This document shows, piece after piece, positions 2 through 48,607 of a stretch of 48,607 bases of DNA. How positions within the stretch are numbered: the stretch's first letter is position 1; each line of letters begins with the position of its first letter. The stretch is taken from the IMG/VR virus record IMGVR_UViG_3300031992_000025, positions 97,932 through 146,538 of that record, one strand, 5' to 3'. Source of the DNA: a virus. Its lineage: Duplodnaviria; Heunggongvirae; Uroviricota; Caudoviricetes. The translations under genes and the position numbers were made by a program. The notes under the pieces are model-generated. The model had not been told where the DNA came from. It saw only the letters and a program-made list of their open reading frames with translations, and searched no databases.

Positions 2-1234
2 AATGGTGACGGCTGACAAACTAATAATATACATTTATCAACTAAGATGGTAGAGGCCGACATTAAAAATGTGCCTGTAGCAAAATTAGACGCCTGGGAT
101 TTAAAATATTGTTTAGATAATAATTTAGATAGGTTTGATTGGGCTGATACTGCTAAGGGAAAGGGTGTAATTTATTATATGAAAGATGAGTATAATAATG
201 AGTGCCCATATGATTTTAAAAATATATTATTTACAAATGATAGCTATGGTATTGATAGTAGCTATACATTTAGCTCATCTAATAATGAAGATAGGTCAAT
301 ATCAACTTGAGCTTGCTATAATAATACTATAAAGTCAAACACTTCTGGTATATCTCATTACTTGCCTCGTAATATTTTTTATCATTTTAGCAATATATAT
401 GGAAATTATATAGGTAAGAATAGCACAGATAATTTATTTATTAGTAATGGCGGTAATAGCACATATAACAATAAAATAGGTGATAATTGTAGTGTAAATA
501 AAATATATTATGGTAGTGCTTCTAATATAATTGGTAATAGCTCTAGTAGCAATACTATTCAGTATAATGCCTATAACAATATAATAGGAAATAATAGCTC
601 AAATAATTATATTTATCAACAATCAAGTTATAATGTAATTCAAAATAATGCTAGTGGTAATACTCTGAATAGACAGTGTAATTATAATATTATTGGTGAT
701 GGTTGCTATAATAACTATCTTAACACTGGCTGTGAAAATAATATATTTTTAGAGCAAGCGCATGATAATGTATTAAGCAATAATTCAGCATACAATAAAT
801 TTATTGGGGCATACAGCAATAATACTGGTCAAAATTGTAAGTATAATACTTTTGAACAGTATGCTAGGTCAAATACTATTGGTAATTACAGTGAAAAGAA
901 TACATTTAAACAAGATGCTAATAATAATATATTAGGTACTTATGCTTTAAATAATATTTTTGGGAATGGTGTTCATCATACATATTTTGGGACATCTGGC
1001 TCACAAATAAATTATGTTAAAAATGTTATAGTTGATAGCGAATGTAGCTATATTAACTTAACGCACACTTCAGATTCTGGTAGTCCAGGAACAAGTAATT
1101 ACTTACAAAATATTCATTTACATATGGGTATTAATGGAACTTCTGGCACAGCAAAAAATATTTTAATTAAAAGAAATTTAAGCTATGAAACTGAAGTTAA
1201 ACCAGCAGATGCAAAGGAGATCATTTTAGAATAA
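2..1234 (+). CDS. 5'-partial virion/tail-fibre-type protein with Asn/Gly-rich beta-helix repeats (TGA=Trp readthrough joins track ORFs 47..310 and 362..1234)
   Basis: Frame 2 is open from the window start to TAA 1234 except TGA at 14-16 and 308-310. It has about 11-aa repeats (NNIIGNNSSNN type) and a YYMKDEYNNECPYDFKNILF motif of a kind seen in phage fibre-like proteins. Confidence 0.65.
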
Positions 1235-1236
1235 CT

Positions 1237-1653
1237 ATGAAATATTTAATGGGTTCAAATTATTTTTTCTCAAAGTACAAAGACTTTACTCCTCATGATT
1301 TAGATACAATTGAGCTAGTAAATACAAAAGAATTTAGGTACAAACGTATAATTAGGGGTCAGGGTAAAGACATTTTTCAGCTTAGAAGAAAGCCAAAAGA
1401 AGAGCTAATCCAAGATGCATTAAGATCTAATTTACCAATGGTAATTGGCAAGTTTTTAATTCCCGAATTTAATGAAGAAATTGGCTTTGTAGTTGATGAT
1501 TTAAGAGAATTAAAACCATTAATTGACAAAATTGATGATAAGCATAAATATGAAAAAATTATTTATGATGCTTATTTAGAAAATGGCAAATTTGAATTAA
1601 CACAAGAGCAAAGAGATGCAGCTTACGCAGAATATAAAAAATACAGAAGCTAA
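1237..1653 (+). CDS. hypothetical protein (138 aa)
   Basis: ORF follows the previous stop and ends TAA; no recognisable motif. Confidence 0.7.
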   Translation: MKYLMGSNYFFSKYKDFTPHDLDTIELVNTKEFRYKRIIRGQGKDIFQLRRKPKEELIQDALRSNLPMVIGKFLIPEFNEEIGFVVDDLRELKPLIDKIDDKHKYEKIIYDAYLENGKFELTQEQRDAAYAEYKKYRS

Positions 1654-1657
1654 TTTT
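1649..1657 (+). promoter_or_regulatory. variant of late-type motif (GCTAATTTT)
   Basis: Resembles GCTAAATTA and lies just upstream of the AGAGGA RBS and the tail-fibre ATG at 1680; it has mismatches. Confidence 0.35.
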
Positions 1658-1679
1658 AAAAAGTAGAGGATAAGAGAAT

Positions 1680-4600
1680 ATGGCAGGAACTAAATATATT
1701 GAAGGCAGTTTAAACGTTACTGGTTCAGTTACATCAACAAGTAATCCACTAGAAGTAACAGCTAATAGAGTTACTTCTGTTTCAGCATTCTCAGATGACA
1801 ATCATTATCCTACAGCAAAAGCTGTTAATAGCGCTATCACCACAGCTATTAACGGAATTCCTGCATTTATGTTCTATAAGGGCACAGTCGGTGATAATGC
1901 TACGATTACATGAGCTAATTTACCTGCTGCGGCTACTACTAATTCCGGACATACTTATAAGGTAATTACTGCACATACTGCTGACACAAAATGTGCTGCC
2001 TGTAAAGTTGGCGATACAATTATTTCAAATGGTAGCACTTGAAATGTTATTCCTTCAGGTGATGATGTTGAAGACACCTGAAGAAATATTAAGGTAAATG
2101 GGACTGAATTTTTAGGAACTGGCTTATCTACTGGTGCAGTTAATTTTGTAAATGGAACTAATGTTACTATTACTACTGAGACAGTGAGTGGTTCTAAAAA
2201 TATTAAGATTTCATCTTCTGACCAATATACAGGAACAATTACAAAAGTAAAAACTACTGCTGGAGCTCATACTGCTATTGATGTTTCAAGTGGAGCCGCA
2301 ACTTTTAATATTCCAACAAAGACAAGTCATTTAACCAATGACAGTGGTTTTGTTACTTCTAGTGGTGTTACTAAAATTACTGCTGGAACTGGTTTAAATA
2401 CTACAAGTAATGATACTACTACTGATGGTGGCAATATTACATCTACTGGAACATTGTATTTAACTAAATCCGGAGTTACTGCTGGCACATATCAAGGACT
2501 TACTATAGATAAATATGGTCGTGTTACAGCTGCTTCAAATCAAGGATATCTAACAAGTGAAGTAGATACTCTTGGTACAGTATTAAATAGAGGTAATACA
2601 GCAACTACTGATATTAATTTTAATAATAAAGATTGGTATAATGCAGGTGTCCAAAAGACTGCTTACGATTATAATACCAATCAAAATCCAGCCACACAAT
2701 ACTGGTGGTATAAAATTACTCCTCCAGCAAGTAATGCTTCAGACAGATATTTCATTGCAGTAGAAGGAGATGTTAATTATCCAAGAGGTAGAGGTAATTA
2801 TATTTTAGATGTTTCTAACTATAATAATGGAACTTCTTATAATGTATCTCTTACAAATCTTGGCTCAACAAATAATAGTGATGGACACTTATTAGCTGTT
2901 GCAATAGATGGAAATGGTAATGTTTATGTGCAAGCAAATGCTGCCTGAACAAGCTATTTAAGATTTATTAGACATGGTGCAGCTACAACTCAAGCATATA
3001 CTCAAGTAGGTAAAGCTGCTTTTGGCACTGCATCTGGTTTTACCTCATTAAAAATGATTAAAGATGCTGGTTGCATTAGATTAAATGCAGGTAGTATTGA
3101 TAATACTGCTTCAAATACTGGACAAGCGCAAGTATTTGCAGATGTATTTATTGAAAATGGTACAAAACTTTCTAGTAAATATTTGACTACTCACCCAACA
3201 ATTACTTTGTCATCAAATTCTACCTCTACTCCTGCTAAGTTATCTTATAATGGCACCTTTACGGCAATTACAAGTATAACACAAGATGCTAATGGGCACG
3301 TCACTAAGTTTAATACTGCAACATATACTTTACCTGCGGATAGCAACACAAACTATTACCATACTCGAGTATATAGCTCTGGATTAAAAGTTAGTACTGG
3401 TACTGGAGTTAGTGATATGTATATTCCAGATGCATCTACAACACAAAAAGGTGTAACTCAATATACTGCTGCTAACTTAAATACTTGGATTAACCAATTA
3501 TCTACAGGAGATAGTGTTCCAGTAGATGCTGATTACTTCATCTCACAATATGTCGGTGGTGGTACAAGCACTACTACATTCCATCGTAGACCAGTATCAA
3601 AGATCTTTGATTATGTTAAAGGTAAATTATCAATTTCAAGTTCTAATAATACCGCACAATGGGGTAGTGCTGTTGTAGTTGGTACTGTTGGCGGAACTGA
3701 GCTTAAATTTACAATGCCTAACAATCCAGATAATAATACTGCTCATAGTCATAGTGCTGGAGTTGGTTTAACTGGAAGTGGAACTGCAGGAACAAGTGGT
3801 ACATATTCATATAAGGTTAATCTTGTTAATGAAACAGCAGCTTCAAATGCAGCAACATACGAAGCTGGTGGTACAAGTAAATTCTATGCAGTTCAATTAG
3901 ATAAAAACAACAAACTCGGCGTTTATGTTCCATGGACTGACACCGATACAAATACACATAATTCTCATAAAATCAATTCTGGATTAAAGTCTGACGGCAC
4001 TACTGATATTATGAGTGCTTCAGCTAGTTCTGGTGATATCACATTAGGTGATTCTGGAGTAACTGCTGGTGCTTATGGGGATAGCACTGCTCAAACACCT
4101 AATTATGGTGCAACATTTAAAGTTCCTTCAATTTCTGTTAATGCTAAAGGTATTGTTACCGATATTGGTGAGCATACTGTTCAAATCCCTGGAAATGAAG
4201 CCAGCAGTAATAGAGAGTTAGTCACATATACTTCTGGTGGTAGCTATACTATTCAAAATACAAAAGATTATTTATTTACAGAAACAGTTTCAGGGGCATT
4301 AAATCTTACTTGTGAATTTACCTCCAATTTTAATTCTGTATATCATATATTCTTATATGTAGGAGAGTCTGTTCCAACTGTAACTTTAGATACCACTGTA
4401 TCTGGTGGTAAGCCGATATTTTTAACTGATTATACTCTTTCAAATTTAAGTGTTTTATCATGCTATGAAATAACTATTATGGGTCGTTTTGTATATATTT
4501 ATAAACTTACTTACCCAATGTTTAACTTCTCAAAAAATTATGTCATACGTTTTCCTAATACTATTACATCATATGATGCCTACCAAAGCTTTACTCCAAC

Positions 4601-5192
4601 GCCTACAATGACTTCTGGTGGTAAATCTGTATCTACAGCTGTTTATATGAACCAAGATTTTGAAGTAACTATACCTACATCTAAGCCTTATACATTTACG
4701 ACAGCTGTATTCAAAAGTTCAGATGGGAATACTACCCTTTATTCAGTACCTTCAAGGATCCTTAGTGATAACCCTAGATCATTTGTAATACCTAAAAGTG
4801 TAATAAGTAATGATATTAATCAAGATTTTATAATGAATCTAGGTTTTGTATTAGATACTTATACTTTAACAATACAATGCCAAGGTGATAGTGTTCCGCG
4901 TTCTCAACTTACTGGACACCTTTATGGTTATAGTATTACCCGTAGTCGTTGGGTAGAGCTAACTAATTTTAGTTTGAGTACGGCTAGTACAACTGTAACT
5001 GCAATTTATTATGCATATTATAAGCTAGAAATATCTGGATTAACTGAAGGAACAGACTATACAAAAACAATAACAACATCTAATTTAACTACAACTACTG
5101 CTTATGAGAGTGCTGTTTATTATAATGGAAACAATACAGGTACTAATGCCAGTATTACTATTGCTATTACAGAAGTTTCTGCACAGGCATAA
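1680..5192 (+). CDS. long tail fibre/adhesin-like protein, 1170 aa with 4 TGA=Trp
   Basis: Track ORFs 1680, 2184 and 3054 share a frame and are interrupted only by TGA (1911, 2040, 2079, 2946). Thr/Ser/Gly-rich, with repeated fibre motifs SGVTAGTY..IDKYGRVT, SGVTAGAY..VNAKGIVT and ITQDANGHVT. Confidence 0.75.
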
Positions 5193-5210
5193 GTAAAAAA
5201 ATAAAATAAA

Positions 5211-5220
5211 TTGTATAATA
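5211..5220 (+). promoter_or_regulatory. TTGTATAATA promoter (-10 like)
   Basis: Recurrent intergenic motif; ATG lies 5 nt after TATAAT with no SD (probably leaderless). Confidence 0.6.
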
Positions 5221-5224
5221 TTGT

Positions 5225-7201
5225 ATGAGAAATTTAAGAGTTATTCCAAGCGAAGATGCTATTGTTTTAAATAAAGCGCCAGTTTTAATAGAAACTGTTT
5301 TTGGACCAGCTGGCAGTGATATTATATCTGGGACAAGTTATAGCACAGGATTGGAGACTACAGTATTTATTAATAATGAAGCAAAACCATTTAAAATTAC
5401 CTATAGTTACAATAAATTTGGGCCACTTTATACACAAACTTCGACTGCTGGGGAAACTATAACTATTTCTTTGATAATAGACCTAAATGACTGTGGATCA
5501 TTGATGGCCGGTTTATTTAATACTAGATATTATACTACACGTTTGTATATTTATAGTATAACGCCACTAGATGGTACGACTTATGATGCTACAACAGCAG
5601 TTGTACGTTTTAGGGGGTACAAACCTGGTGATAGTGCAGATTTAGTTTATCTTTATAGCATTAACCAGACAGATAAGATGCTCTTTGGGGATAAGGAAAT
5701 TATATTTAATATAAGAGATGCCTTGGGTCCAAATATGGATGGCAGTAGTTCAAAAAATTGTCATATATATAATCCACGTAATAAATGGATCATAAACGGT
5801 TATTCAAGGGCAGGTAGTAGAACTGACCCTGTAGTAGTAGTTGATGCAGTAGATGAAACAACTATTTTAGATTATTTATGTGGAAATGATATAATTATTA
5901 GTGATGGGGCTATAAATACTAGTCAGTATGTTTCAAATACTCCAATAGCTTGATCAGCACTGTTAAATTCAGTTTCTTTGGGGGCTATAAATGAAACAGT
6001 ATGGGCCACATCTAAAATGACAAATGGTGCGGCTATTAATGGACAGACTTTAAGTTGAACAAAGCCATTAAAGCAGCTTTATTTATTAAATGGTACTATA
6101 TATGATCCGTTTGATAATGTTACTATGACTCTTAGCACAACTAATAAGCAGATTACTTTAAGTGGCGGGTCTAGCGGTACAGGCAGTGATCATAGTACAG
6201 ATACTTTTTCAGCTTCATTTTTATTATTATATACTGATGGCACCCAAGATAGGTTAAATTTAACTATGCCGGTAGATCATTATTATGATGCCCCATGTTT
6301 AGTTGCTGGTACAATAGTTAAGACACAGGCTGGAGATAAAAAAATTGAAGACATAATTTATTCAGACTTATTATTAACTTATGACGTATTTCGTGGTAAA
6401 TTATGTTATCAGCATCCAGCATTCATCAAAAAAGAGCATAATACAGAACAGTATTTATTAATTACTCTTACAGATAATACAGAAATAAAAATAGTACGAG
6501 AGCATAATTTTTATGACATTAAAAATAAAGTATTTTTAGATATTACAGATTATAATTATGATAAGTTAGACCTAGACAATATTTTATTTATGCATATTAA
6601 TGAGGATGGCAGTTTAGGCACTATTGGAATTAAATCTATAAAACCAATTGCTGATCATGTTACATTTTATACACTATTTACAAGTGGCACAATGTGCTAT
6701 TTTGCAGGAAATGTTTTAAATGGAAGTCCATATTTTAATTTTTTAGGCGGTATGAAAGACAATGATACATTAAATACAAATTTAATGGAAATAGCAGATA
6801 CTACAATGGGTCAGCTTCCATATCAGTCTTTTAAAGAAAATTTTGGTGCTTTATATGAGCCATTATATAAAAGTTGTTTATTAAACTATATTGGAATAGG
6901 CCTTTTGAGCAATCTTCATGAACAAACTAAAGAGGCAATCAGTGCGCATACAACTAATGATCCAGTTATTCGTTTCCGTGAAATAGTAAATACTTTTTGG
7001 GCAGATTTACAAACTTATGATAATGACCTTTGCTATCTTACTTTTAGATATAAGAATGGTACTGAGTCAAAAATACAAGCAAAATTTAAAGATACAATCT
7101 TAATTCCATTTGGTACATTTTATAATGTAGGAGACCGTAAAATATATCATAAAGATGATGCTTATATGGTTGAAATGAACACAGTATTTGAGGAGATATA
7201 A
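5225..7201 (+). CDS. 658-aa protein with internal Hint (intein-like/BIL) domain; 2 TGA=Trp
   Basis: Track ORFs 5225 and 6125 are in one frame, broken only by TGA 5951 and 6056. Hint motifs are P-CLVAGTIV..GDKKIEDI (6296), IVREHNF and YFAGNVLN (to 6721). Confidence 0.7.
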
Positions 7202-7407
7202 TGCAAAAAACATTTATTAATGGACTAAACTTATTTGCAAGAAGTGTTTGTATTGTTAAAGAATCTAAAACGCAACTACTAAATGTACAATTTCATTTAG
7301 CGCATCATTGTAATTTAAATTGTAAATATTGTTCAGCTACTTGTTTCGATACTTTATACTTACCAAGCAAGTCTGAATTAAAGAAAGGTGAATGAATAAA
7401 AGAATAA
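7201..7407 (+). pseudogene. truncated radical SAM-like fragment (68 aa)
   Basis: CxxxCxxC motif FHLAHHCNLNCKYCS, then TAA at 7405 even after TGA readthrough; no TIM barrel follows. Confidence 0.5.
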
Positions 7408-7411
7408 TCTA

Positions 7412-8434
7412 ATGTTACATTTAAGTTTGTTAGTTGGTAAACTTCACAGAGTGGCTAAGCAACCAAAGTCTTTTTTTGAATATTTTCTTCCAAAAAGCGA
7501 ACAAAAATATTTGCAATTTAAGCAGCCCACATTAACAGTTGGTATTTTACATTATAATGAATCAGTAAGTCTAATAGAAAGGGCTGTAAAATCTATTACC
7601 GTACAACATCTTTCTGTTAAAATAAAAATTTATTGTGATGGTGGCGCCGTTAAACTGCCAAATATGCCCGGCACTGAAATTAAATATCTTAAAAGACATG
7701 CTGGTCCTGGGTATGTTAGAAATAATTTAATTAAAGATTGTGATACTGACTATATTACCTTTTTAGACGGAGATGATGTATTAAATCCAGGTGCTATTAA
7801 AGTTTTTTATGATAGTATTAAAAAATATCATCCTGATTTGGTCTATACTACTCGACAAGAGGAGACTTCAGCAGGACAATACATCAAGCATCCTGATTTA
7901 TTTTGCTTAACAGTATGTCATGGTAAAGTATATAATGTAAATTTTTTAAAAACTAATAAAATTATTTTTAGAGAAGATATAATTCTTTGTGAAGATATGT
8001 ATTTTAATTTAGAAATATATAATAAAACAAGAAATATTTATTTTATAAATAAAAATACTTATACTTGAAAATATAATCAAAATTCTTTATTACGTTCACA
8101 AGGAATTGATACATCAGTAGATTCATCATATGTTTGTTTCGATCAAAATTTAAAAGCTTTAAATTGATGGCTAGATAACATAGAAACTAATGGGTATGTT
8201 AATAGTGCATTACATATTTTTGCTCATAATATTTGGTATTATAAAACTCAATTATCAGTCTATAATTCAGTAGAAGAGCATGATTATTATATTAAAAGAT
8301 TTTTTACAGAGCACGTTAATAGACAATATACTAAAAAAGAATTAAAGATAGCTGATAAAATTGGTAAGCGACTAAACTTACTAATTAGAAAAAAAATTCC
8401 ATTATTTAGCTCACAGTATAAAAAGTATAAATAA
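7412..8434 (+). CDS. family 2 glycosyltransferase, 340 aa with 2 TGA=Trp
   Basis: VGILHYNE, GPGYVRNNLI, YITFLDGDD (DxD), EDMYFN and YTYTW(TGA) motifs. The frame continues through TGA 8066 and 8165 to TAA 8434. Confidence 0.8.
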
Positions 8435-8516: not shown

Positions 8517-8882
8517 ATGAAGACAGAAGAATTTAATAAAATTGTTGAAGGTCAATTAGAAAGAATTAGAAGTGTCTTAGTTAAAAAAGCAGATGAATAT
8601 AATTTAGAAGAAGACCGTTTAGGCTTCTTTAAGCGTTCGGCAGCTTTTGCTCAAGAAACTCCTGAACAAGCTCTCTATGGGTTCCTTTTGAAGCATTTAC
8701 AAAGTATTACAGACATGGTAATGAGTGGTAAAAGTTATTCAGATGATTTATGGAAAGAAAAGATTACAGATACAATGAATTACCTTTGTTTATTACTTGG
8801 TTTAATTGAAGATACAGGTAGAGCTAAACAAAAACCTGGCCCAAAAGCTCAAAGAATTAGATTAGTTGAGGAAAAGAAATAA
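8517..8882 (+). CDS. DUF1599-like (nucleotide-modification-associated, all-helical MazG-like) protein
   Basis: KKADEY..DRLGFFK..LLKHL..EKITDTMNY pattern recalled from the family. Confidence 0.5.
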   Translation: MKTEEFNKIVEGQLERIRSVLVKKADEYNLEEDRLGFFKRSAAFAQETPEQALYGFLLKHLQSITDMVMSGKSYSDDLWKEKITDTMNYLCLLLGLIEDTGRAKQKPGPKAQRIRLVEEKK

Positions 8883-9385
8883 TGAGTCAAGAATATACAC
8901 AATATATAGTAGAGCATAAAGCCAACGTCGAAAAAGCTTATAGATGGCTTTTTCAGCATAATATCTTAGATATTCATACAGCTAGACCCACACAAATTAT
9001 AAATCATGATTTATCTAAGTATCAACCAGAAGAATACGATGCTTATGATAATTATTTTTATGGCACTAAAACTAAAGAAGTAAAAGAAGCATTTGATTAT
9101 GCGTGGCTTCATCACATTCATCATAACCCGCATCATTGGCAATATTGGGTATTAGTTAATGATGAAGATGGAACTAAGGCTCTTGAAATGCCTGAAGAAT
9201 ATGCTATTGAAATGGTTTGTGATTGGTGGGCTTTTTCACATAAATCTGGCAATCTAAAAGAAATTTTTGATTGGTATAAAAGTCATAAAAAGAATATGAT
9301 TTTACATGAAAAAACTAGAAAATTCGTTGAGGATTTATTAGATAAAATTAAAGAAATTTTGGAGACTGAAGATAATGCTGAATAA
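8882..9385 (+). CDS. DUF5662-like HD-related protein
   Basis: HDLSKY..EY and AWLHHIHHNPHHWQYW..EMP..EMVCDWWA motifs. Confidence 0.6.
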   Translation: MSQEYTQYIVEHKANVEKAYRWLFQHNILDIHTARPTQIINHDLSKYQPEEYDAYDNYFYGTKTKEVKEAFDYAWLHHIHHNPHHWQYWVLVNDEDGTKALEMPEEYAIEMVCDWWAFSHKSGNLKEIFDWYKSHKKNMILHEKTRKFVEDLLDKIKEILETEDNAE

Positions 9386-9578
9386 AGATTTTTATAATAA
9401 ATTGCCTGGATTTGTTTGTGAGATACTTGATGAACTTATTGAAAAATATAGTGAAAAGTCTTGGTTTGAACAAGCTTGGAATGAATATAGAGAATATGTT
9501 TTAAGTGTTGAAGATATTTTTGACCTTAAAATGCCTGGATATGTTTTTAATAAATATGTAAAAGCGGAGGAAAAATAA
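9375..9578 (+). CDS. hypothetical protein (67 aa)
   Basis: Overlaps and is coupled to its neighbours; GGAG RBS. Confidence 0.65.
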   Translation: MLNKDFYNKLPGFVCEILDELIEKYSEKSWFEQAWNEYREYVLSVEDIFDLKMPGYVFNKYVKAEEK

Positions 9579-10423
9579 TGGCATTAGCAGACAAGATTTT
9601 TAAAGAAGAAGTAAATAAATTATTAACAGAAGGTTTTAATGATAAAGATTATGAAGTCAGACCTAAATGGCCTGATGGAACACCAGCTCACACCATTAAA
9701 ACTTTTTGTGCTATTAGACGCTATGATTTAAGTAAAGAATTCCCAGCTCTAACACTTCGCACACAAGCATTTAAAGGCGTCGTAAGAGAGCTTTTGTGGA
9801 TGTGGCAGAAGAAATCTAATGTCGTTGATGAATTGGGCAAATCGGCAGCTATTTGGCGCGCCTGGGAGCGTCCTGATGGAACCATTGGCAAAACATATGG
9901 CTATCAATTAGGAAAAGTCTCACATTACTCTTATGGCGATTTAGACCAAGTAGATAATTTAATTTATTTATTAAAGAATAAACCAATGGACCGCAGAATG
10001 ATTGTTACTATGTGGTGTCCAGAAGACTTACATGATATGGCACTTCCTCCTTGCGTCTATGAAAGTATTTGGGACGTAACTGATGGAAAGCTTAATTGCA
10101 CACTAATTCAACGTTCCGGTGACCTTTTAGCAGCAGCTTGCTCTGGTGGCTGGGACACAATGGAATATGCTATTCTTCAACATATGCTTGCACAAGTCTG
10201 TGGGTATAAAGTTGGTGAATTAGTTCATATCGTTAATAATTTACATATTTACGATAGACATGTCGAAGCAGTCAAAAAGGTCTGTGAAAACCCAGAATAT
10301 GATGCTCCAACTTTATGGATTAACCCTGAAGTAAAAGATTTCTATGCTTTTACAGAAGATGACTTTAGATTAGATAATTACCAATCAACAAAGCTTATGG
10401 AAAAGTTTGAGGTGGCAGAATAA
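9578..10423 (+). CDS. thyA: thymidylate synthase
   Basis: MDRRMIV, MALPPCVY (catalytic Cys), IQRSGDL and NNLHIYDRH motifs. Confidence 0.95.
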   Translation: MALADKIFKEEVNKLLTEGFNDKDYEVRPKWPDGTPAHTIKTFCAIRRYDLSKEFPALTLRTQAFKGVVRELLWMWQKKSNVVDELGKSAAIWRAWERPDGTIGKTYGYQLGKVSHYSYGDLDQVDNLIYLLKNKPMDRRMIVTMWCPEDLHDMALPPCVYESIWDVTDGKLNCTLIQRSGDLLAAACSGGWDTMEYAILQHMLAQVCGYKVGELVHIVNNLHIYDRHVEAVKKVCENPEYDAPTLWINPEVKDFYAFTEDDFRLDNYQSTKLMEKFEVAE

Positions 10424-10671
10424 TGGTTGAATACACAGTTGATACATTAGTTCATTTATATGATAGCTTAAATGGTCAGATTGAGTGTGTTAGAAGCGAT
10501 TTAGAAGAATTTAATCATATTGGTTTTAGCCCAAATCTTACAGAGGAATATAGAGCTGAAATTGAAGCGGCTCATGCAAAAACAGAAAAAAGACTTGAAA
10601 AGCTTACCAGTATGAGAGATGATGTTGAAGAGCTACTTAATAAAATTTTAAAAGTAGAGGTCAATGAATAA
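10423..10671 (+). CDS. hypothetical coiled-coil protein
   Basis: TAATG-coupled ORF with GAGG RBS. Confidence 0.7.
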   Translation: MVEYTVDTLVHLYDSLNGQIECVRSDLEEFNHIGFSPNLTEEYRAEIEAAHAKTEKRLEKLTSMRDDVEELLNKILKVEVNE

Positions 10672-11048
10672 TGAAAGAAAATATTGATATTAAACAAAAT
10701 ATTGCTACAATGCATCATATAGAGCGAGTTTCCTTTCCTTGTCCTAAATGTGGTAAAGAAGCAGAAGCTGATGTAAGCATAGTTTTATCATCTTATCCTA
10801 GTCAATATAGCTATTATTGCCCACATTGTGGTGCTCATGGTTCAGTATTATGCTCAGAAGTTGACAATTATTGCTTTGATAAAAAAGTTTGGGAAGCCAT
10901 TGGCTCTACGAGATTACATGGCACAAAGTGTATTATTTGTGATGAAGAGACTACTTTTGCAGGTGAAATTGACCACCCACATATTTGTAATAATTGCAAA
11001 GAAGCAATTATTGCTATGAGAAAGGCATTAGGCACCTGGCATGATTAA
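10671..11048 (+). CDS. multi-Zn-ribbon protein
   Basis: CPKC, CPHC, CIIC and CNNC pairs. Confidence 0.7.
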   Translation: MKENIDIKQNIATMHHIERVSFPCPKCGKEAEADVSIVLSSYPSQYSYYCPHCGAHGSVLCSEVDNYCFDKKVWEAIGSTRLHGTKCIICDEETTFAGEIDHPHICNNCKEAIIAMRKALGTWHD

Positions 11049-11544: not shown

Positions 11545-11548
11545 TTAA

Positions 11549-36388: not shown

Positions 36389-36390
36389 TA
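36381..36390 (+). promoter_or_regulatory. CCGTATAATA promoter variant
   Basis: GTATAATA core overlapping the upstream stop codon. Confidence 0.5.
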
Positions 36391-36405
36391 TAATAAGGTA
36401 TAATT

Positions 36406-37221: not shown

Positions 37222-37226
37222 TTTAT

Positions 37227-37790: not shown

Positions 37791-37795
37791 AATAA

Positions 37796-37828
37796 AAGAG
37801 CTTAATGCTCTTTTTTTATTGTATAATA
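37796..37828 (+). terminator. terminator hairpin fused to a TTGTATAATA promoter
   Basis: AAGAGC-TTAAT-GCTCTT-T tract-ATTGTATAATA. Confidence 0.7.
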
Positions 37829-37835
37829 TAAATGT

Positions 37836-38867
37836 ATGAAAGTTTTAATATATACAGATCCGCACTTTTGCGAAAAGTTTTCCATCATTACTAAGATGGG
37901 AGACAAATATACTACTCGTTTAGAGAATCAAATTAAATCAATTAATTGGGCTGAAAATTTAGCTTATGAGAAAGGCTGCCAATATGTTATTTGTGCTGGT
38001 GACTTTTTTGATAAAGCCAACTTGACTCAACAAGAATTGACTGCTCTAAACGATATTCAATGGGCACCAATGTGCGCTCATTATTTCTTAGTCGGCAATC
38101 ATGAAAGTGAAGAAAACGATTTACACTATAATTCAACTGAGGTCTTACAACAAGATCGTAGAAGTAATTTTATTGTTGCTGAACCAAGACTTTTAGAAGA
38201 GCCTGGTTTTGAGCTTGCTTTCTTACCTTATATTACAGAAGCAAGAAGACAAGAAGCTAAAGATTATTTCCCAGAGCCAAAAGCTAAAAGACTATTAATT
38301 TCACACAATGACCTATTTGGAATTCAAATGGGTCCGGCTATTTCTACCGTTGGTTTTAAGCCAGAAGACTTAGCATCTATTTGTGATTTATGTGTTAATG
38401 GCCACTTACATAATGGTGTAAAGATTAATGAAAAAGTTATTAATCTTGGCAATTTAACAGGCAAAGACTTTGGTGAAGATGCTTTTAGATATAAGCATAA
38501 TGTAATGTTAGTTGACACCGATACAATGACATATGAGCTTATTGAAAACCCATATGCATTCAACTTTTATAAAATTGAAATTAACACAAAAGCAGATTTA
38601 GCTATTTTAAATAGATTATCTAGCAATGCAGTTGTTTCAATTAAATGCAGAGATACTATAGTAGCTGAATTAAAAGAGCTTATTATAACGCTACCAAATA
38701 TTGTCGAGTCTCGAATTGTAATTACAAGAGAAGTTGCTAATGGTGAAACTGCCGAAGACATCACAGACCTAACTGTAGACCAATATGTCAAGTTTGCTGA
38801 ATGCTGCAGAGAGAAGCTCGAAAATAATGCTATTCTTGAAGAAGAGCTCTCTGAAATACTAAAATAG
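37836..38867 (+). CDS. SbcD/Mre11-like metallophosphoesterase nuclease
   Basis: YTDPH, AGDFFD, VGNHE, ISHND and NGHLH motifs. Confidence 0.88.
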   Translation: MKVLIYTDPHFCEKFSIITKMGDKYTTRLENQIKSINWAENLAYEKGCQYVICAGDFFDKANLTQQELTALNDIQWAPMCAHYFLVGNHESEENDLHYNSTEVLQQDRRSNFIVAEPRLLEEPGFELAFLPYITEARRQEAKDYFPEPKAKRLLISHNDLFGIQMGPAISTVGFKPEDLASICDLCVNGHLHNGVKINEKVINLGNLTGKDFGEDAFRYKHNVMLVDTDTMTYELIENPYAFNFYKIEINTKADLAILNRLSSNAVVSIKCRDTIVAELKELIITLPNIVESRIVITREVANGETAEDITDLTVDQYVKFAECCREKLENNAILEEELSEILK

Positions 38868-38910
38868 CAAAATTAGATTTTAAAGTATATTATTGTATAA
38901 TATAAAGTAT

Positions 38911-39306
38911 ATGGTAGATTTTAAAATAAAATATAAAAATTTATACAATCAATACAATAAAAAATTATTAGCTGACCATAAAGCTAATTTTTCAGTTTTA
39001 AATAATAATATGAACTATTTTATTACATATTTAAAGCTTTTACGTGATTATTATTTATTAACTGATACACAAGCAGAAAGTGAAGATGAAATTAGTCTTA
39101 AAGCAGCTACTCTCGTTGCAGCTGTTGGTGAGTATGAAAAATATGAATCCTGCATCTGTAAATATTATAAGTCAACAGGTGAAAGACTTATAGAGGGAAC
39201 AGCTGAAGAAATTTCTAAAAAATACAACGACGAAAGAAATTTTCACTGAACAAATTTTTGGCAGTTAGTTATGACAAATATTGAAGGGTGGTCCGTTAAT
39301 GGCTAA
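38911..39306 (+). CDS. hypothetical protein, 131 aa with 1 TGA=Trp
   Basis: Readthrough at TGA 39247 extends the ORF to TAA 39306, overlapping the sbcC-like start. GCAAAATTA (38867) and TTGTATAATA (38893) lie upstream. Confidence 0.6.
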
Positions 39307-41173
39307 TTTTATAGATTTTGAAAAAGTAATTATTCATAATTTTGGTAGTTATGGTCATACGGAATTAGACTTAAAAAGCAAAGGTTTTTGTTTAGTTTCT
39401 GGACAAAATAACTTCAAAAAAGATAATGCGCTCTCAAATGGCTCTGGTAAGAGTTTTATTTGGAGTGCTATTTGCTATACAATTACAGGCGAAACTTTAA
39501 ATGGCTTACATACTAATTTAAAAAATATTAATATTGAAGATGATGATAAGTGCTATGTAAAATTAATCTTTAAAGTTAATGCTGATGAGTATGAAATTAC
39601 AAGACATGCTTCACCTAAATCAGATTTACAAATTATTAAAAATGGTGCAGATGTTTCTGGTAAGACTTACCGTGAAAGCGAAAAGAAGCTTGGCGATTTA
39701 CTTCCAGACTTAACTCATGATTTAATTGCTTCAACAATTATTATTGGCCAAGGTATGCCAAATAAATTCTCTTCATTTAGCCCAAGTGGTCGTAAAGAAT
39801 TACTTGAAAAATTAACTAAGTCTGACTTCATGATTGAAGACATTAAAAATAGAGTTACTCTTAGACAAAGTGAATTAAGCAGAAAAATTCAAGAATGTAG
39901 TGATAGTATTTTAGTTAATGGAACTAAATTATCTACTGCTAAAAAAGACTTAGAAAGAATTGAAAAAGAGATTGCTGAAACTGTTAAACCAGATTTTGAT
40001 AAAGACCTTAAAGAAAGTGATGCTTTATTAAAATCTATTGATAAAGATGTTACAAGATTAACTGAGGCAAGAAAAGCAGTTGATGCTCAAATTGAAATAA
40101 CAAATGGTGCGCTTCTTACTATCGCGCACGAAAAAGCTGAAAAACTACGCATGTTATCAGAAAGCTACCACACTGCAATTGATCCTGTTAATCAAGAAAA
40201 ACTTACTGCTGAAACCACTATTAGAAATTTAACTGCAGAAGTTAATAGATTAAAAGCAGTTAAAGATACTTGTCCAACATGTGGTCAAAAATTACCTGGA
40301 GCCGTTAAACCAGATACATCTAGTCAAGAAGCTCAAATTAAAACTCTAAATGAAAGTTTAACTCCTCTTAAAAATAGAATTAATGAGATTAATACTAAGA
40401 GTGCTGAATATAAGCAACAAATTGAAAACGAAGTTGCTGATAAAGAAACCAAATTAAATACTGAGATAGCTGGACTTAAAAAAGATAGAGATACCATTAT
40501 CAACGAACTAAATGATTGTTCCCAAAATTATAATACTGAAAAGGAAAGATATAGCAAACTTACTTTTGAAAAAGATAACTGGGACAAACACCAAAAATTC
40601 TTAAATGATTCTATTGCAGAATTACAAAAGTCTATTAATACATTAGACAACTTAGTAAATATTACTAATGATGCCAAAGTAGATTTAGAAGCTCACTTAG
40701 CAGTTGTTAAAAAAATGGATTCACTTGCTAAGAGAGACTTCCGTGGTTATTTATTAACAAATATCATTAATTATATTGATAAGAAGGCTAAAGATTATAG
40801 TGAAACTGTTTTTGGAACTAGAGACCTTAATGTTTATATTGATGGTAATGCCTTAGATATTTCTTATTGTAATAAAATGTTTGATAACTTATCAGGCGGA
40901 GAAAAACAAAGAGTAGACTTAATTCTACAATTTGCTATCAGAGATATGTTAAATGTTTATCTAAACTCTGGGGCCAATATCTTAGTATTAGATGAAATTA
41001 CAGACTTCCTTGATAAAACAAGTTGTAGCGCTGTAATGAAACTAATTGAAAAAGAGTTAAATACTATTGAGTCAGTATTTATCGTTAGCCACCATGCAGA
41101 TGAGCTTGGCCTTCCAGTAGACTCAGAAATTAAGGTAATTAAAGATACAAATGGCATTAGCCAAATTATATAA
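39299..41173 (+). CDS. SbcC/Rad50-like SMC ATPase
   Basis: NGSGKS, CPTCGQ zinc hook, LSGGE signature, LVLDE and IVSH motifs, plus coiled coils. Confidence 0.9.
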   Translation: MANFIDFEKVIIHNFGSYGHTELDLKSKGFCLVSGQNNFKKDNALSNGSGKSFIWSAICYTITGETLNGLHTNLKNINIEDDDKCYVKLIFKVNADEYEITRHASPKSDLQIIKNGADVSGKTYRESEKKLGDLLPDLTHDLIASTIIIGQGMPNKFSSFSPSGRKELLEKLTKSDFMIEDIKNRVTLRQSELSRKIQECSDSILVNGTKLSTAKKDLERIEKEIAETVKPDFDKDLKESDALLKSIDKDVTRLTEARKAVDAQIEITNGALLTIAHEKAEKLRMLSESYHTAIDPVNQEKLTAETTIRNLTAEVNRLKAVKDTCPTCGQKLPGAVKPDTSSQEAQIKTLNESLTPLKNRINEINTKSAEYKQQIENEVADKETKLNTEIAGLKKDRDTIINELNDCSQNYNTEKERYSKLTFEKDNWDKHQKFLNDSIAELQKSINTLDNLVNITNDAKVDLEAHLAVVKKMDSLAKRDFRGYLLTNIINYIDKKAKDYSETVFGTRDLNVYIDGNALDISYCNKMFDNLSGGEKQRVDLILQFAIRDMLNVYLNSGANILVLDEITDFLDKTSCSAVMKLIEKELNTIESVFIVSHHADELGLPVDSEIKVIKDTNGISQII

Positions 41174-41187: not shown

Positions 41188-42012
41188 ATGCAATGAAAGA
41201 AAGATCCAGATAAAAAATATACTGACCTCTGTATTTATATTGATGCTAATATTCAAAATATTGCTAACCCAGGTGAGCATCCCGATATTGAAAACACAGT
41301 ATATAATTATATCTGATTAGTTATTAAGGCACTAGCTATTAAAAAATGCATGTTTAATAACTTCCAAGATTATGACCCTTATGCATTCTATGGTGCAAAT
41401 CGAATATACTTTGCACTAAGAAAAAACATTTGAAACACGGGCAAAACGATTAAAGGTAAAGAAATTAAGCCAATTAAATCTTGTCTAAACTACATTAAAG
41501 CTCTTCTTTACCCAATGAAAATTGAGTACCAAAATGAAACATTTAGAGAAATTATTTCAGAAGAATTTGTTTCTAAAAAATTTGACTCTTTTACATTTAG
41601 AGAGCAAATGCGTAGTGGTGCAAGAGCAAGCCAAGGTGTTAATGAACAATTTAGAAGCTATGTGCAAGATGCATTTGTGCACATCGGTTCAATGGCTGAT
41701 GATGTATTAAAAAAATCACCATTTAGCCCAAGATCACTTGATTACAAAAAATTAAAAATATCATTAATGCTTAATGCAATTAACTCATTAAAGACTAAGA
41801 AAAAATTAGATTCAGATTTGCCTACAATTATTCTATGAAAACTTCCAAAGTCAATGTCAAGTTATGTTAGAATATTATTAAAAGAATTCTATTCAGAGAT
41901 TAAAACTGAGATTATGGAATGCCACAGAGCCGCAGATATTAGTGATGATGTGGTAGATAGAATGCTACAAAATGCTTCAGAAGATAGGGAGACATATGAA
42001 GACAAATATTAA
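41188..42012 (+). CDS. 274-aa protein with all 4 Trp encoded by TGA; candidate sigma-like/late transcription factor
   Basis: Open frame from ATG 41188 to TAA 42012 with TGA at 41194, 41314, 41431 and 41836, and an AAGGAG RBS. The CDS is well supported; the function is speculative. Confidence 0.6.
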
Positions 42013-42391
42013 AAATAATCTAAATGCACTTCATTTATCAGATATTTACTCTTTAATGTTATTTATTCTATATAAAGTGCAAGACATACCAGAATATGCT
42101 GTATTAAGTGAATTGTGCTATTTATTAGACGGTAATAACTTAACTAGACTTCTTACTTATTTTGCTGGAAAAACTATTACATTTCCAACTGAAGATGAAT
42201 TTGCTTCATTAACAAATGCATTATTATTATATAACTATGTTAATGTTGAAGGTCTAACACTTGTTGAAGGTCAAGCAAAATTAGAAGATGTTACGCCAAA
42301 ACAAATGGAAATTATTACAGATTTATATCTTAAAATATTACCTGTAATGAGACAATACAATATTGATAGGAGTCAATTAAGTGGCAAATAA
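41996..42391 (+). CDS. protein with a Mor-activator-like motif
   Basis: LTRLLTYFAGKTITFPT resembles the Mor/C family L...FGG..IYIP; GGGAG RBS. Confidence 0.45.
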   Translation: MKTNIKNNLNALHLSDIYSLMLFILYKVQDIPEYAVLSELCYLLDGNNLTRLLTYFAGKTITFPTEDEFASLTNALLLYNYVNVEGLTLVEGQAKLEDVTPKQMEIITDLYLKILPVMRQYNIDRSQLSGK

Positions 42392-42602
42392 TAAGTTTCC
42401 AGAAGAAGAGCGTTCATTTGAAACAAGACTTAAATTTATTAAAGAGTTATTTACCAATAAGTATGAAGACTACCAAATTATGGCACATTGCATTCAGCAT
42501 AAGCTAGACAAATCATATGAAGCATATGTGAAAAAAATTCATAAGAGCTCTTGGTTATTAGAAAACGAAGACCCAATGAAAATATTAAAAAGAATTGATT
42601 AA
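42381..42602 (+). CDS. hypothetical protein
   Basis: 73-aa ORF overlapping the upstream stop. Confidence 0.6.
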   Translation: MANNKFPEEERSFETRLKFIKELFTNKYEDYQIMAHCIQHKLDKSYEAYVKKIHKSSWLLENEDPMKILKRID

Positions 42603-45675: not shown

Positions 45676-45828
45676 ATGGAAAAGGATAATAAAAAAATTA
45701 TTAGTTTAGAAATTCCAGAAGACTTACGTAAAGCTTTACGTATTGAAGCCTTCAACAGAGACGTCACAGTCTCAGCATTAATTAGAGATATTCTTGCAAA
45801 GGAACTTAAAGTTACCCCTAAGAAATAG
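45676..45828 (+). CDS. ribbon-helix-helix (CopG/Arc-like) DNA-binding protein (50 aa; not in ORF track)
   Basis: IISLEIPEDLRKALRIEAFNRDVTVSALIRDIL pattern; GGGAG RBS; TAG at 45828. Confidence 0.8.
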   Translation: MEKDNKKIISLEIPEDLRKALRIEAFNRDVTVSALIRDILAKELKVTPKK

Positions 45829-45839: not shown

Positions 45840-47684
45840 ATGGAAGATTTAAAAAGTAAGAAATTACTTGTAATTGTCGAGTCTCCAAATAAAATATCAC
45901 ATATCAGAGACTATTTAAGAAAAGCTGGCTATCAAGTTAATGTTCAAGCAAGTGTTGGGCATATTATGCAACTTGGTAATGGTGGACCTTATGCAAACTC
46001 TGGTGTTAATCCTGATAAAGACTTTGAGCTAAATTTACAAGTTTCAGAAGATAAATATAAAACTGTTCAAGATTTAAAAGCAGCTGTTAAAACAGCTGAT
46101 TTAGTTTATCTTATGTCTGACCCCGATAGAGAAGGGGAAGTTATTGCTTGGAGTTTAATTAAGTTTTTGAATATTCCAAAGACTAAAATTAGAAGAGCTG
46201 TGACTCATGAAATCACTCCAAAAGCAGTTGTTAATGCTATTGAAAACCCAATTAAATTAAATGAAAATTTGGTTGATGCTGGCTTAACAAGATTAACATT
46301 AGATAAGATGATTGGCTTTAGATTAAGCCCAATTGCTAAAACTTATGTTGGTGCTAAATCAGTTGGTAGATGTCAATCAGTTGGTTTAAAATTAGTTGTT
46401 GATAGAGAAAGAGAAATTCAAGCATTTGTTCCAGAAACTTATTTTGATTTATATTTAAATTTTGTTAAAAATAAAACTAAATTTAAAGCTAAGTTTGCTG
46501 GGAATAATGAAATTGGAAATGTTGATCACTTAAAAACACAAGCTGAAGTTGACAAAGTTAAAAAGAATTGTAAAGGTGATTTTATAATTGAAGCGATTAA
46601 GCAAAAAGAAAAAGAAGAGTCACCAAAACCACCATTCTGCACTGCGACTTTCCAACAAGAAGCCGCAAGTAAAATTGGCTTAAAAGTCAAAGATGCGATG
46701 GCTGTTGCCCAAAAGTTATTCGAGTCTGGAAATATTACTTATATGAGAACTGATGATACAGTCTTTGCTGAAGAATTTGTTCCAGTTTTAAAAAGTTATA
46801 TTGAAAATACTTATGGTAAAAAAGCTTGGACTCAACCACGTGTTGGCAAAAAGCAAGAAAATGCACAAGAAGGCCATGAATGTTTACGTGTTACAGACCC
46901 AACATTAACTCCAGACCAATACAATAAAATTGATGCTAATAGCTTAAACCAAAAAGTTTATAAACTTATTTGGCAAAGGACTATTGCAGCTGCTTTACCT
47001 AATGCTAAGATTTCAGAAACTCAATACTTAATTGATAATAATGGTGAGAAATTTATCTTAGTCTCAAATGAAATTACAAATTTAGGTTATCGTGAAGTTT
47101 ATTCTTATAAAGACGATGACCAAGATGAAGATGGACCAGTTAAAGAAACCTTTAAAAAGGGTGAAATACTTAAAGATTGCACATTAGAAGATATTAAAAA
47201 AGAAACAAAACCAAAACCAAGATATACTGAAGCTACATTAATTAAAACTTTAGAAAAGAATGGTTGTGGTAGACCTTCTACTTATGCTACTATTGTTGAA
47301 ACTGTATTGAGCACCACAAGAGGCTATGCTGAGCTTCAAGAAAAGTCTATTGTTCCAACCGATAGAGGTATGCAGTTAGCAGCTTTCTTAGATCGTTCAT
47401 TTAACAATGTGATTAACTTAGATTATACAAGTGAAATGGAGAAATCTCTTGATAAAATTGCTGCTGGTAAAGAAAAGAAGTCTCAATTTTTAACTGAATT
47501 CTACAATAACTTAGAAAATACAATTAAAAATAATAAAGAAATTCAAACTGATCCACTGGCTGGTGAAGCAAAGGTATGCCCAGAATGCGGAGCTCCAATG
47601 GTAATTAGACGAAGTAAATTTGGAAAATTATTCTATGGGTGCTCTAAATACCCAAAGTGTCGTGGCATAATAAATATTAATTAA
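45840..47684 (+). CDS. topA: type IA DNA topoisomerase
   Basis: IVESPNK, SDPDREGE, SVGRCQS, ITYMRTD (catalytic Tyr), GRPSTYA and a C-terminal CPECG Zn ribbon. Confidence 0.95.
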   Translation: MEDLKSKKLLVIVESPNKISHIRDYLRKAGYQVNVQASVGHIMQLGNGGPYANSGVNPDKDFELNLQVSEDKYKTVQDLKAAVKTADLVYLMSDPDREGEVIAWSLIKFLNIPKTKIRRAVTHEITPKAVVNAIENPIKLNENLVDAGLTRLTLDKMIGFRLSPIAKTYVGAKSVGRCQSVGLKLVVDREREIQAFVPETYFDLYLNFVKNKTKFKAKFAGNNEIGNVDHLKTQAEVDKVKKNCKGDFIIEAIKQKEKEESPKPPFCTATFQQEAASKIGLKVKDAMAVAQKLFESGNITYMRTDDTVFAEEFVPVLKSYIENTYGKKAWTQPRVGKKQENAQEGHECLRVTDPTLTPDQYNKIDANSLNQKVYKLIWQRTIAAALPNAKISETQYLIDNNGEKFILVSNEITNLGYREVYSYKDDDQDEDGPVKETFKKGEILKDCTLEDIKKETKPKPRYTEATLIKTLEKNGCGRPSTYATIVETVLSTTRGYAELQEKSIVPTDRGMQLAAFLDRSFNNVINLDYTSEMEKSLDKIAAGKEKKSQFLTEFYNNLENTIKNNKEIQTDPLAGEAKVCPECGAPMVIRRSKFGKLFYGCSKYPKCRGIININ

Positions 47685-47698
47685 ATATTAATTAAAAT

Positions 47699-47724
47699 AG
47701 ACTGCTTTAAAGGCAGTCTTTTTA
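47699..47724 (+). terminator. intrinsic terminator
   Basis: AGACTGC-TTTAAAG-GCAGTCT-TTTT. Confidence 0.8.
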
Positions 47725-47744
47725 TTATTTGCTACTAATTAATT

Positions 47745-47753
47745 GCTAAATTA
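47745..47753 (+). promoter_or_regulatory. GCTAAATTA late-type promoter motif
   Basis: Exact copy after the topA terminator, ahead of a CAGGAG RBS. Confidence 0.6.
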
Positions 47754-47789
47754 ATTGATTTAATAAAGTTTAAAAACAGGAGATATAAA

Positions 47790-48607
47790 ATGGCAGGAAT
47801 TTTACCACAAGATAAAGTAAAAGAAGCTAAAGCTTGGCTCCACGATGTTTTTGTTTGAGGAGGGCTAGTTGCTACTCCAAAAAGATCTATTCCAATAGAT
47901 AAATATAGATATATGTATGGGACTCATGATGAAAACTTTAGAAAAGATGACCCAAAATATCGTGATGCTGCAAAAACAATTTGTGCTTGTATTACAAGTA
48001 GAAAAGTTGAAACACAAAGATTTTTAGCATTTGATGCAGCAATTAAACTTCTTTCACAATGCTCATTTTTACCAGATTTAACAGCAAATAGAGGCTATGT
48101 CAGAGAAACTGCAGATACACTCTGTGCTTTTATTGCTTGGTTTTGTGATGAGAATAAATTAGTTTATAATAACATAAATACATCTGTTGAAGAGATGAAA
48201 CAAATTAAAAATACATTAATTGGTAAGACTCTCTGAGACAGTTATTTATTTGCTAAAGACCATACACCAGAAAATAAGCCAAATAAGGGAACTGTTGATA
48301 CAAGTGCTCCTGCTAAACCAGCAGCTCAAGCTACACCAGCTGCAAGTACACCTGCCAGCAATAATGGAACACCAACTGCTACTACAGTAAAAACTGGTGG
48401 TCCTGCTGGACATACATTATATAGAAAGAATGCAAGCGGTATTTTAACACAGGGCAAACTTACTAATATTGCTAATGGTTATTATGTATATTGGATTGGT
48501 GGAGAATTTACTAATCCAGGAAAAACTCAACCAAAATTACATGTTAAACCTCAATATGGTAAAACACCATTAAAAGTTGATTTTGGTAGCGGCCAAGGAT
48601 ATAATGA
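47790..48607 (+). CDS. 3'-partial hypothetical (likely late/virion) protein with at least 2 TGA=Trp
   Basis: ATG 47790 with RBS; TGA at 47856 and 48234; Pro/Ala/Thr linker; the frame is open to the window end. Confidence 0.7.

Follow-up and report, generated by a model that had tools for sequence, protein, structure and literature searches.

Reading of TGA as tryptophan in a sheep-gut phage, and its concentration in structural, tail-fibre and homing-endonuclease genes

How the codon TGA is read, and why it occurs in some genes and is absent from others, are the questions raised by a stretch of phage DNA of 48,607 nucleotides (“the window”) that spans bases 97932-146538 of the 146,538-base IMG/VR record IMGVR_UViG_3300031992_000025 (G000). 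Gene coordinates refer to the window unless they are marked as genome or G000 coordinates. The G+C content (GC) of the window is ~31%, that of the genome 33%, and every long open reading frame (ORF) in the window lies on the + strand. The explanation in which considerable confidence can be placed is that the phage uses a partial form of genetic code 4, in which TGA stands for tryptophan (Trp) and occurs mainly in the genes for structural proteins, tail fibres and homing endonucleases together with a few conserved odd genes (gene 41188, RecU and PhoH), and that this distribution is to be explained by early as against late translation. The same confidence extends, jointly with this explanation as a whole, to the identification of the window as the tail-fibre and replication part of a ~244-kilobase (kb) sheep-gut (rumen-type) phage that carries all of its genes on one strand.

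The window sequence is present in sheep-gut metagenomes, and a search of the INPHARED phage collection returned no close relative. Head and tail genes are missing from G000. Its last ORF, which is open at the 3' end, was used as a query and led to the joining contig G013 (IMG/VR 3300028833_000101, 104.7 kb), which encodes portal, protease, major head and sheath genes. Window positions 48438-48607, the last 170 bases of G000, overlap exactly with the first 170 bases of G013 (L377:1-170), and the last 6.8 kb of G013 (97929-104702) aligns to G000 1-7172 at 82-95% identity. CheckV puts the completeness of G000 at 64% and that of G013 at 46%. By these overlaps, the two contigs make up a composite circular map of ~244 kb that is nearly closed and is drawn from co-occurring strains. 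The relatives used for comparison are G005, which is the closest (its PolA is 93% identical); G001-G004, which are complete, the proteins of G003 being ~50% identical; and G011c94, a 175-kb related contig binned with a Lachnospiraceae metagenome-assembled genome (MAG).

TGA at tryptophan positions

The initial annotation had counted 31 in-frame TGA codons in 12 + strand genes, a count which is reproduced exactly when ORFs are called with translation table 4, as are its figures for individual genes: 0 TGA and 12 TGG in polA, 0 and 9 in thyA, TGA for 8 of 9 Trp codons in a GIY-YIG endonuclease gene, and TGA for 4 of 4 in gene 41188. Five further TGA codons in the mechanical ORF list (30524, 32679, 42551) are artefacts that lie in upstream extensions overlapping the preceding gene. 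If coverage is defined as the fraction of sequence in ORFs of at least 100 amino acids (aa), the coverage of G000 rises from 0.667 under table 11 to 0.778 when TGA is sense, compared to 0.71 when TAG or TAA is taken as sense instead. For G013, table 4 lifts coverage from 0.654 to 0.874, and the TAG-sense and TAA-sense controls for the record and the joined contig give 0.68-0.73.

The amino acid that TGA represents can be read from codon alignments, which were made between table 4 translations and the regions around PolA in 78 related IMG/VR contigs. TGA in the window is aligned to TGG 50 times, to TGA 18 times and to TTT or TAT 37 times, and TGA in the relatives is set against TGG in the window in 44 alignments. 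There is no sign of glycine, the reading of code 25 (Absconditabacteria/Gracilibacteria), since the 15 codons most often set against TGA include no GGN codon. At seven orthologous TGA sites, G005 has TGG in five, TGA in one and TAT in one, and no site has TGG here and TGA in G005; the phage appears to be still gaining TGA codons relative to G005. A selenocysteine reading was rejected, because single genes contain as many as 8-11 TGA, which stand at Trp columns, and because there is no tRNA-Sec, the only weak Rfam hit being a tRNA-Tyr gene. The alignments show that TGA encodes Trp in this phage. Over the whole map, Trp is specified by 297 TGA and 765 TGG codons (~28% TGA; both contigs are included, and their ~7-kb overlap is counted twice).

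That the TGA-interrupted frames are decaying pseudogenes, or are expressed by rare read-through, can be given almost no credence. Neither TAA nor TAG interrupts the frames, even where 11 TGA occur in 2457 codons, TGA stands at Trp columns of the relatives, and the genes are conserved; moreover, judging from known read-through rates, eight TGA codons in one gene, each passed at a few percent, would leave essentially no full-length protein. Nothing specific speaks for such decay, the ambiguous cases being short ORFs with a TGA close to the end. TGA within six codons of the gene end is mildly over-represented in G000 (odds ratio 2.3, p = 0.02). In gene 38893-39306, the one case that can clearly be tested, a standard-code relative has Trp at the column of the near-end TGA and the homology runs on to the C-terminus, and the TGA at 39247 is therefore sense; in gene 1243-2160, Trp is found at the column of the near-end TGA in G013, which is consistent with a sense reading. 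In PhoH, comparison with solved structures shows that the column under the TGA is not a conserved Trp column, so it bears neither way. No case requiring TGA as a stop was found in this phage. The statement that every gene ends in TAA or TAG, which was also part of the initial annotation, holds, but under table 4 it does so by construction.

Five of the TGA-bearing genes lie at the start of the window. The C-terminal part of a tail-fibre-region protein occupies 2-1234; this 902-aa protein, which starts 1475 bases before the window and has no Pfam or PHROG match, contains 8 TGA and 7 TGG in total, with TGA at window 14 and 308. It is followed by a gene for a 1170-aa protein (1680-5192) which is open only with TGA as sense (TGA at 1911, 2040, 2079 and 2946; 7 TGG), by a gene for a 658-aa protein (5225-7201) in which the TGA codons at 5951 and 6056 link two table 11 fragments, by a 68-aa ORF (7201-7407) whose TGA at 7393 lies four codons ahead of TAA and which is the weakest of the 12 cases, and by a family-2 glycosyltransferase gene (7412-8434; PF00535, E = 1.2e-11) with TGA at 8066 and 8165 and 2 TGG. 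Further downstream, a class-3 lipase gene (16868-17602) has TGA at 16937, 17093 and 17480, its codons 76 and 205 being TGG in seven of nine relatives and in G005, and the adjoining gene for a 134-aa protein (17605-18009) has a TGA at 17800 where G005 has TGG at the same codon. The free-standing GIY-YIG homing endonuclease (23087-23695; PF01541) has 8 TGA and 1 TGG, and the RecU-like resolvase (29310-29843) a single TGA at 29493, which is TGG in G005 although the two proteins are 97.7% identical. The remaining cases are the 137-aa gene 38893-39306 already mentioned, the 274-aa gene 41188-42012, which has no family match and contains 4 TGA and 0 TGG, and the first gene of the structural module (47790-48607; TGA at 47856 and 48234), which is open at its 3' end and continues on IMGVR_UViG_3300028833_000101. 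All twelve are on the + strand.

Partition of TGA among genes and a promoter-like motif

The claim that TGA use is partitioned among genes is upheld by a test over the 60 genes with at least four Trp codons (chi-square 204 with 59 degrees of freedom, p = 7e-18), and none of 20000 permutations reached the observed value. The partition follows the modular layout of the map. The replication and nucleotide module (window 8.5-48.6 kb) has 18 TGA and 108 TGG (14% TGA), with all 18 TGA in six of its 58 genes, while the fibre block has 46 and 95 (33%), the structural module of G013 has 134 and 153 (47%), and the small-gene region of G013 has 9 and 88 (9%).

All annotated replication genes except RecU contain no TGA, and no lysis genes were identified. 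The TGA-free genes, all on the + strand, form a block at 8517-16843 with thyA (9578-10423, 9 TGG), formate-tetrahydrofolate ligase (14260-15867) and FolD (15938-16843); a group at 19892-22865 with the DnaC-like loader, the DnaB-like helicase and primase; a group at 23768-29325 with SSB, PolA (24655-27870, 12 TGG) and the sliding clamp; and, once true starts are assigned, a group at 30581-38867 with the UvsX-like recombinase, clamp-loader subunits, an exonuclease and SbcD. The type IA topoisomerase gene (45840-47684), also TGA-free, is the last gene ahead of the structural module, as it is in G003.

The same division is found in the relatives. Every replication orthologue in G003 has 0 TGA, the G003 orthologue of gene 41188 (50% identical) has 5 TGA and 0 TGG, and RecU and PhoH in G003 have 3 TGA to 1 TGG and 6 TGA to 0 TGG respectively. 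The replication module of G005 is without any TGA, and the coverage of its fibre block rises from 0.71 to 0.93 under table 4. Whether a gene is TGA-bearing or TGA-free is thus conserved between relatives that are ~50% diverged.

The TGA-bearing class is also marked by its upstream sequence. A strand-specific, promoter-like motif, ATTTGCTAAATTA, precedes structural genes throughout the family; it was tested in the form GCYAAATTA, and its extended consensus is ATTTGCTAAATTAWWTGA. G000 contains 26 copies on the + strand, compared to 2.7 expected, and one on the - strand, and 22 of the 26 are intergenic although only 11% of G000 is. The first gene within 100 bases downstream of the motif has TGA in 15 of 20 cases, whereas among the remaining 189 genes 47 have it (Fisher p = 1.4e-5), and the genes downstream of the motif contain 49 TGA and 58 TGG, compared to 104 and 451 elsewhere. 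G002 and G003 show the same enrichment of TGA behind the motif, and the genes that it heads there are those for the head protease and the sheath and one upstream of portal. Since the motif is also found in standard-code relatives, it can be regarded as a family-wide promoter-like element, most likely of a late type.

Within the window, the late-type motif GCTAAATTA lies on the + strand at 16857-16865, 11 bases upstream of the lipase gene, and further + strand copies lie at 23056-23064, 31 bases upstream of the GIY-YIG gene, at 41160-41168, 28 bases upstream of gene 41188 and in the form of the GCCAAATTA variant, and at 47745-47753, where the first gene of the structural module follows. There is a fifth copy at 19102, and the gene behind it is TGA-free. 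The motif count in the window alone is not significant (3 copies compared to 1.1 expected); significance is reached only over the whole record.

The GIY-YIG gene is the case for which a different origin of TGA richness has the most to offer. Together with its late-type motif, it forms a ~840-base insertion between the primase and SSB genes that is not in G005, the gap between the two genes being 1054 bases here and 214 in G005 (window 22866-23767 compared to G005 52730-52944). The source-sample assembly, which consists of contigs from two DNA runs and one RNA-library run and is fragmented by strain mixture, has DNA contigs with loose ends at 23005-23013, adjoining the insertion; it also has an RNA-library contig that covers 23022-23432, which is no proof of transcription. 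No start, strand or expression level is visible in the contigs of these runs. All three homing endonucleases of G000 are TGA-rich (8 TGA to 1 TGG, 7 to 3 and 5 to 1). These observations would fit an import of TGA-rich genes, above all homing endonucleases, from heavily recoded phages whose codon habit was kept, and because the insertion is absent from G005 its provenance may contribute to the TGA richness of the GIY-YIG gene. As an account of the whole pattern, import is improbable: it fails for conserved syntenic genes (41188, RecU, the lipase and the tail fibres), orthologues flip between TGG and TGA in place, and the overall GC of TGA-bearing and TGA-free genes is equal (0.324 in both).

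Decoding of TGA and the early-late explanation

The explanation preferred here supposes that early-translated genes must stay readable for a host that stops at TGA, that the genes expressed from late-type promoters would be translated once a decoder of TGA is available, and that TGG-to-TGA changes would be tolerated in those late genes, where they may even help to delay the appearance of the proteins. The decoder in G002 and G003 would be a phage tRNA-Trp(UCA) with its own tryptophanyl-tRNA synthetase (TrpRS).

The suppression system which the initial annotation expected the phage to switch on was not found: neither G000 nor G013 contains a tRNA(UCA), a TrpRS or RF1/RF2 (ARAGORN, Rfam RF00005, PF00579, PF00472). 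The window itself has no tRNA genes by ARAGORN or by Rfam at the gathering threshold. A 38-gene tRNA cluster lies at 44-62 kb of G000 and includes a tRNA-Trp(CCA), which is no closer to the UCA tRNAs of the relatives (59-66% identity) than to their CCA tRNAs. That this tRNA might be a suppressor of the Hirsh type was rejected, since it has an ordinary U11-G24 pair. Of the low-threshold ARAGORN calls of tRNA(tca), the one at genome 40522 was likewise discarded, because it is part of a conserved 677-aa ORF and lacks a T-loop. Those at 129094 and 136457 are doubtful, since the run that gave them made 100 tRNA calls, most of them false, and Rfam places every tRNA within 44-62.3 kb. Scans of IMG/VR with suppressor-tRNA patterns gave an anticodon-arm pattern that was unspecific and a D-arm pattern that matched only G002, G003 and one other contig.

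Several non-canonical tRNA-like elements of the cluster were considered as decoders and set aside, because a UCA anticodon loop is present neither in those at genome 45677-45764, 47549-47660 and 48045-48118 nor in the two Y-RNA-like units (60.2 and 62.2 kb). They are unusual in themselves. The genes at G000 45677-45764 and 47549-47660 (L003:6077-6164, L003:7949-8060) pass the Rfam tRNA threshold with 37 and 32 bits and have normal acceptor, D and T arms, with 28 and 54 bases in place of the anticodon arm. The tRNA at G000 48045-48118 (Rfam 49 bits) has a six-base anticodon loop, TATTAA, to which ARAGORN assigns no anticodon. The elements at G000 60211-60279 and 62248-62316 (L004:1111-1179, L004:3148-3216) each consist of a permuted tRNA-like module carried by a long stem, and they match YrlA (Y-RNA-like) weakly. 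In the standard-code relative G001, at 188.5-198.5 kb (L247), the anticodon loops of four tRNA genes (Leu, Glu, Gln and Asn) are interrupted by insertions, which are 63-123 bases long.

Decoders are recognizable in the heavily recoded relatives. Reading TGA as sense brings the coverage of G002 and G003 from 0.56-0.58 up to 0.83-0.84. TGA makes up ~49% of their Trp codons, and each has genes for tRNA-Trp(UCA), Lon and TrpRS in a row, without TGA, just upstream of its tRNA cluster (G003 L115:7623-11155, minus strand; G002 C1:229814-233241). The module encodes a full-length Lon (TIGR00763, 811 bits) and a TrpRS (TIGR00233, 304 bits). Lon is not known to have been listed as a code-change gene, and an action of Lon on RF2 would be pure speculation. 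G001, G004 and G011c94 show no gain in density and have no tRNA(UCA), TrpRS not having been searched for in these three; all three are standard-code, with TGA as the stop in 7-15% of genes. Recoding and suppressor tRNA thus coincide across the four complete relatives and G011c94, and the present phage is the exception. A search of five partial relatives gave no tRNA genes at all.

Besides the missing suppression system, several observations count against the early-late explanation. In each of the three recoded genomes, the Trp codons of the major head gene are all TGG (4 TGG, 0 TGA), although its structural neighbours are TGA-rich (G013 21192-22523, L377-L382; G003 reverse complement 41280-42581; G002 33682-34998), and the protease gene and several large structural genes of the present phage are TGA-free as well, while RecU and PhoH contain TGA though they are not obviously late; any gate is therefore neither complete nor limited to late genes. 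The motif is a putative promoter by its position and strand bias only. C-to-U editing of the anticodon, another conceivable route to a decoder, was rejected, there being no CDA-family cytidine deaminase in G000 or G013. Finally, G000 and G013 differ by 5-18% in their overlap at one junction, which indicates that the two contigs come from different strains and that the map is a composite. Of the initial proposal that early genes stay host-readable while TGA gates late ones, what stands is that the replication and nucleotide genes are TGA-free here, in G005 and in relatives ~50% diverged, and that TGA genes lie behind the late-type motif; a strict gate is at odds with the TGA-free capsid and structural genes and with the TGA in RecU and PhoH.

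If there is no gate, the pattern could be a by-product of AT-biased TGG-to-TGA drift in genes whose translation follows the appearance of the decoder and for which the demand on expression is modest, so that TGA would mark tolerance rather than timing. The absence of TGA from the major capsid gene in all recoded genomes is what such drift would produce, this being presumably the highest-expressed late gene. It also agrees with the slightly lower GC at third codon positions of TGA-containing genes (0.191 compared to 0.205, p = 0.036), which is lowest in the endonucleases, with flips between TGG and TGA in genomes 93% identical, and with the wide variation of the TGA share, from ~28% here to ~49% in G002 and G003. 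It is less easily reconciled with the conservation of TGA status over ~50% divergence, the all-TGA gene 41188 included, or with the tie between TGA use and one promoter class. Drift of this kind is a possibility to be taken seriously, though it is not the favoured one; since it has the same premise about the timing of the decoder, it is a variant of the early-late explanation and not a true alternative to it. That TGA is tolerated after the decoder appears and avoided where high output is needed fits the data no less well than a strict regulatory lock would.

A host that itself used code 4 would make a switch in the phage unnecessary, and the restriction of some genes to TGG would have to come from their expression level or recent history. 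The failure to find a decoder in the phage is what such a host would predict, and the closest cellular relatives of thyA include uncultured Bacilli MAGs. Nevertheless, such a host is quite improbable: TGG outnumbers TGA by ~2.6:1 at a GC of 33%, replication genes are TGA-free in diverged relatives as well, sister phages stop at TGA in 7-15% of genes, the phage has its own tRNA-Trp(CCA), and the related 175-kb contig was binned with a Lachnospiraceae MAG. The TGA-free early genes, the TGA stops of the sister phages and this binning are indirect evidence that the host uses the standard code. A bolder extension of the early-late explanation holds that the phage reads ~300 TGA codons as Trp without a canonical decoder, under a two-layer lock formed by an undescribed decoder and a dedicated late promoter. 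Candidates for the decoder would then be a tRNA-like RNA of the tRNA island, a tRNA-Trp(CCA) that is modified or made in excess while RF2 activity is lost, or a suppressor supplied by the host or a co-infecting phage. This extension is rather doubtful.

The early-late explanation has a published precedent in the TGA-to-Trp gut and rumen phage clades Jade, Sapphire and Agate (Borges et al., bioRxiv 10.1101/2021.08.26.457843, later Nature Microbiology). The recoded clades described there have genomes of 150-210 kb and come from animal guts, including those of cattle; relatives above 90% average nucleotide identity can differ in genetic code; a homing endonuclease in an early gene is among the most TGA-biased families; and Jade phages have a tRNA-TrpRS-RF1 code-change operon. 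Suppressor tRNAs were detected in only 35% of the code-4 genomes of that study, and a 2026 survey of jumbo phages also includes recoded genomes without them; with a suppressor tRNA missing in 65% of published code-4 genomes, a decoder gene is typical but not obligatory. The present phage resembles these in being large, AT-rich and from the gut, in using TGA for Trp in structural and not in replication genes, and in having standard-code relatives and a TGA-rich endonuclease, the likeness being one of features. Because Borges et al. have published the pattern, the finding is of an already known kind: it matches the published model, and is a correct rediscovery and one further example of it.

The present case departs from the published account in that the TGA class is tied to a defined promoter-like motif, the capsid gene is TGA-free, and a nearly closed map is without a known decoder; these three points, together with the Lon-containing module of the relatives, are what is new here. 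The side-by-side, standard-code genes for tRNA-Trp(UCA) and TrpRS next to the tRNA cluster in G002 and G003 are like the Jade operon, but Lon stands between them and no RF1 was found, and the present phage has none of these genes. The TAG-to-Gln crAss-like and Lak phages are alike in reassigning a stop codon mainly in late genes in standard-code hosts; they differ in the codon (TAG), the amino acid (Gln) and the hosts (Bacteroidota), and they usually have a tRNA(CUA) and sometimes RF2. In Mycoplasma and Spiroplasma, which share the reading of TGA as Trp, TGA is the main Trp codon genome-wide and RF2 has been lost, whereas here TGA is a minority codon in certain genes and the phage has a tRNA-Trp(CCA) only.

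For annotation, the consequence is that this genome and its relatives need table 4, without which ~10-25% of the coding sequence is fragmented, fibre and structural genes included. The family makes a good test bed, since it has standard-code, partly recoded and heavily recoded members, a motif that marks the TGA class, and one member without a recognizable decoder. It would allow direct tests of recoding as a control of timing as against drift, and of TGA reading without a suppressor tRNA gene.

Gene content and neighbouring features

Family searches assign to the window thymidylate synthase, formate-tetrahydrofolate ligase, FolD, DnaC-like, DnaB-like, primase, SSB, PolA, sliding clamp, RecU, UvsX-like recombinase, clamp loader, exonuclease, SbcCD, peptide deformylase and topoisomerase genes. 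Proteins resembling tail fibres or adhesins are encoded in the first 8.4 kb of the window and the preceding 25 kb; they are large and contain carbohydrate-binding, BspA-LRR and Mtd_N domains. This block (G000 72.6-106.4 kb, window 1-8400) has zero nucleotide similarity to the corresponding block of G005 (10-37.8 kb), while both flanks are 75-93% identical, and it behaves like a swappable host-range cassette.

The folate and thymidylate genes for ThyA, formate-tetrahydrofolate ligase and FolD lie in one module (window 9578-16843), and ThyA is 90% identical to that of G003, while most other proteins shared with G003 are 30-70% identical. PolA is one gene of 1071 aa here (24655-27870), compared to two adjacent ORFs of 655 and 387 aa in G003 (L116:7779-10979), and in several other relatives the match to PolA spans 3.5-4.6 kb, which suggests inserted elements.

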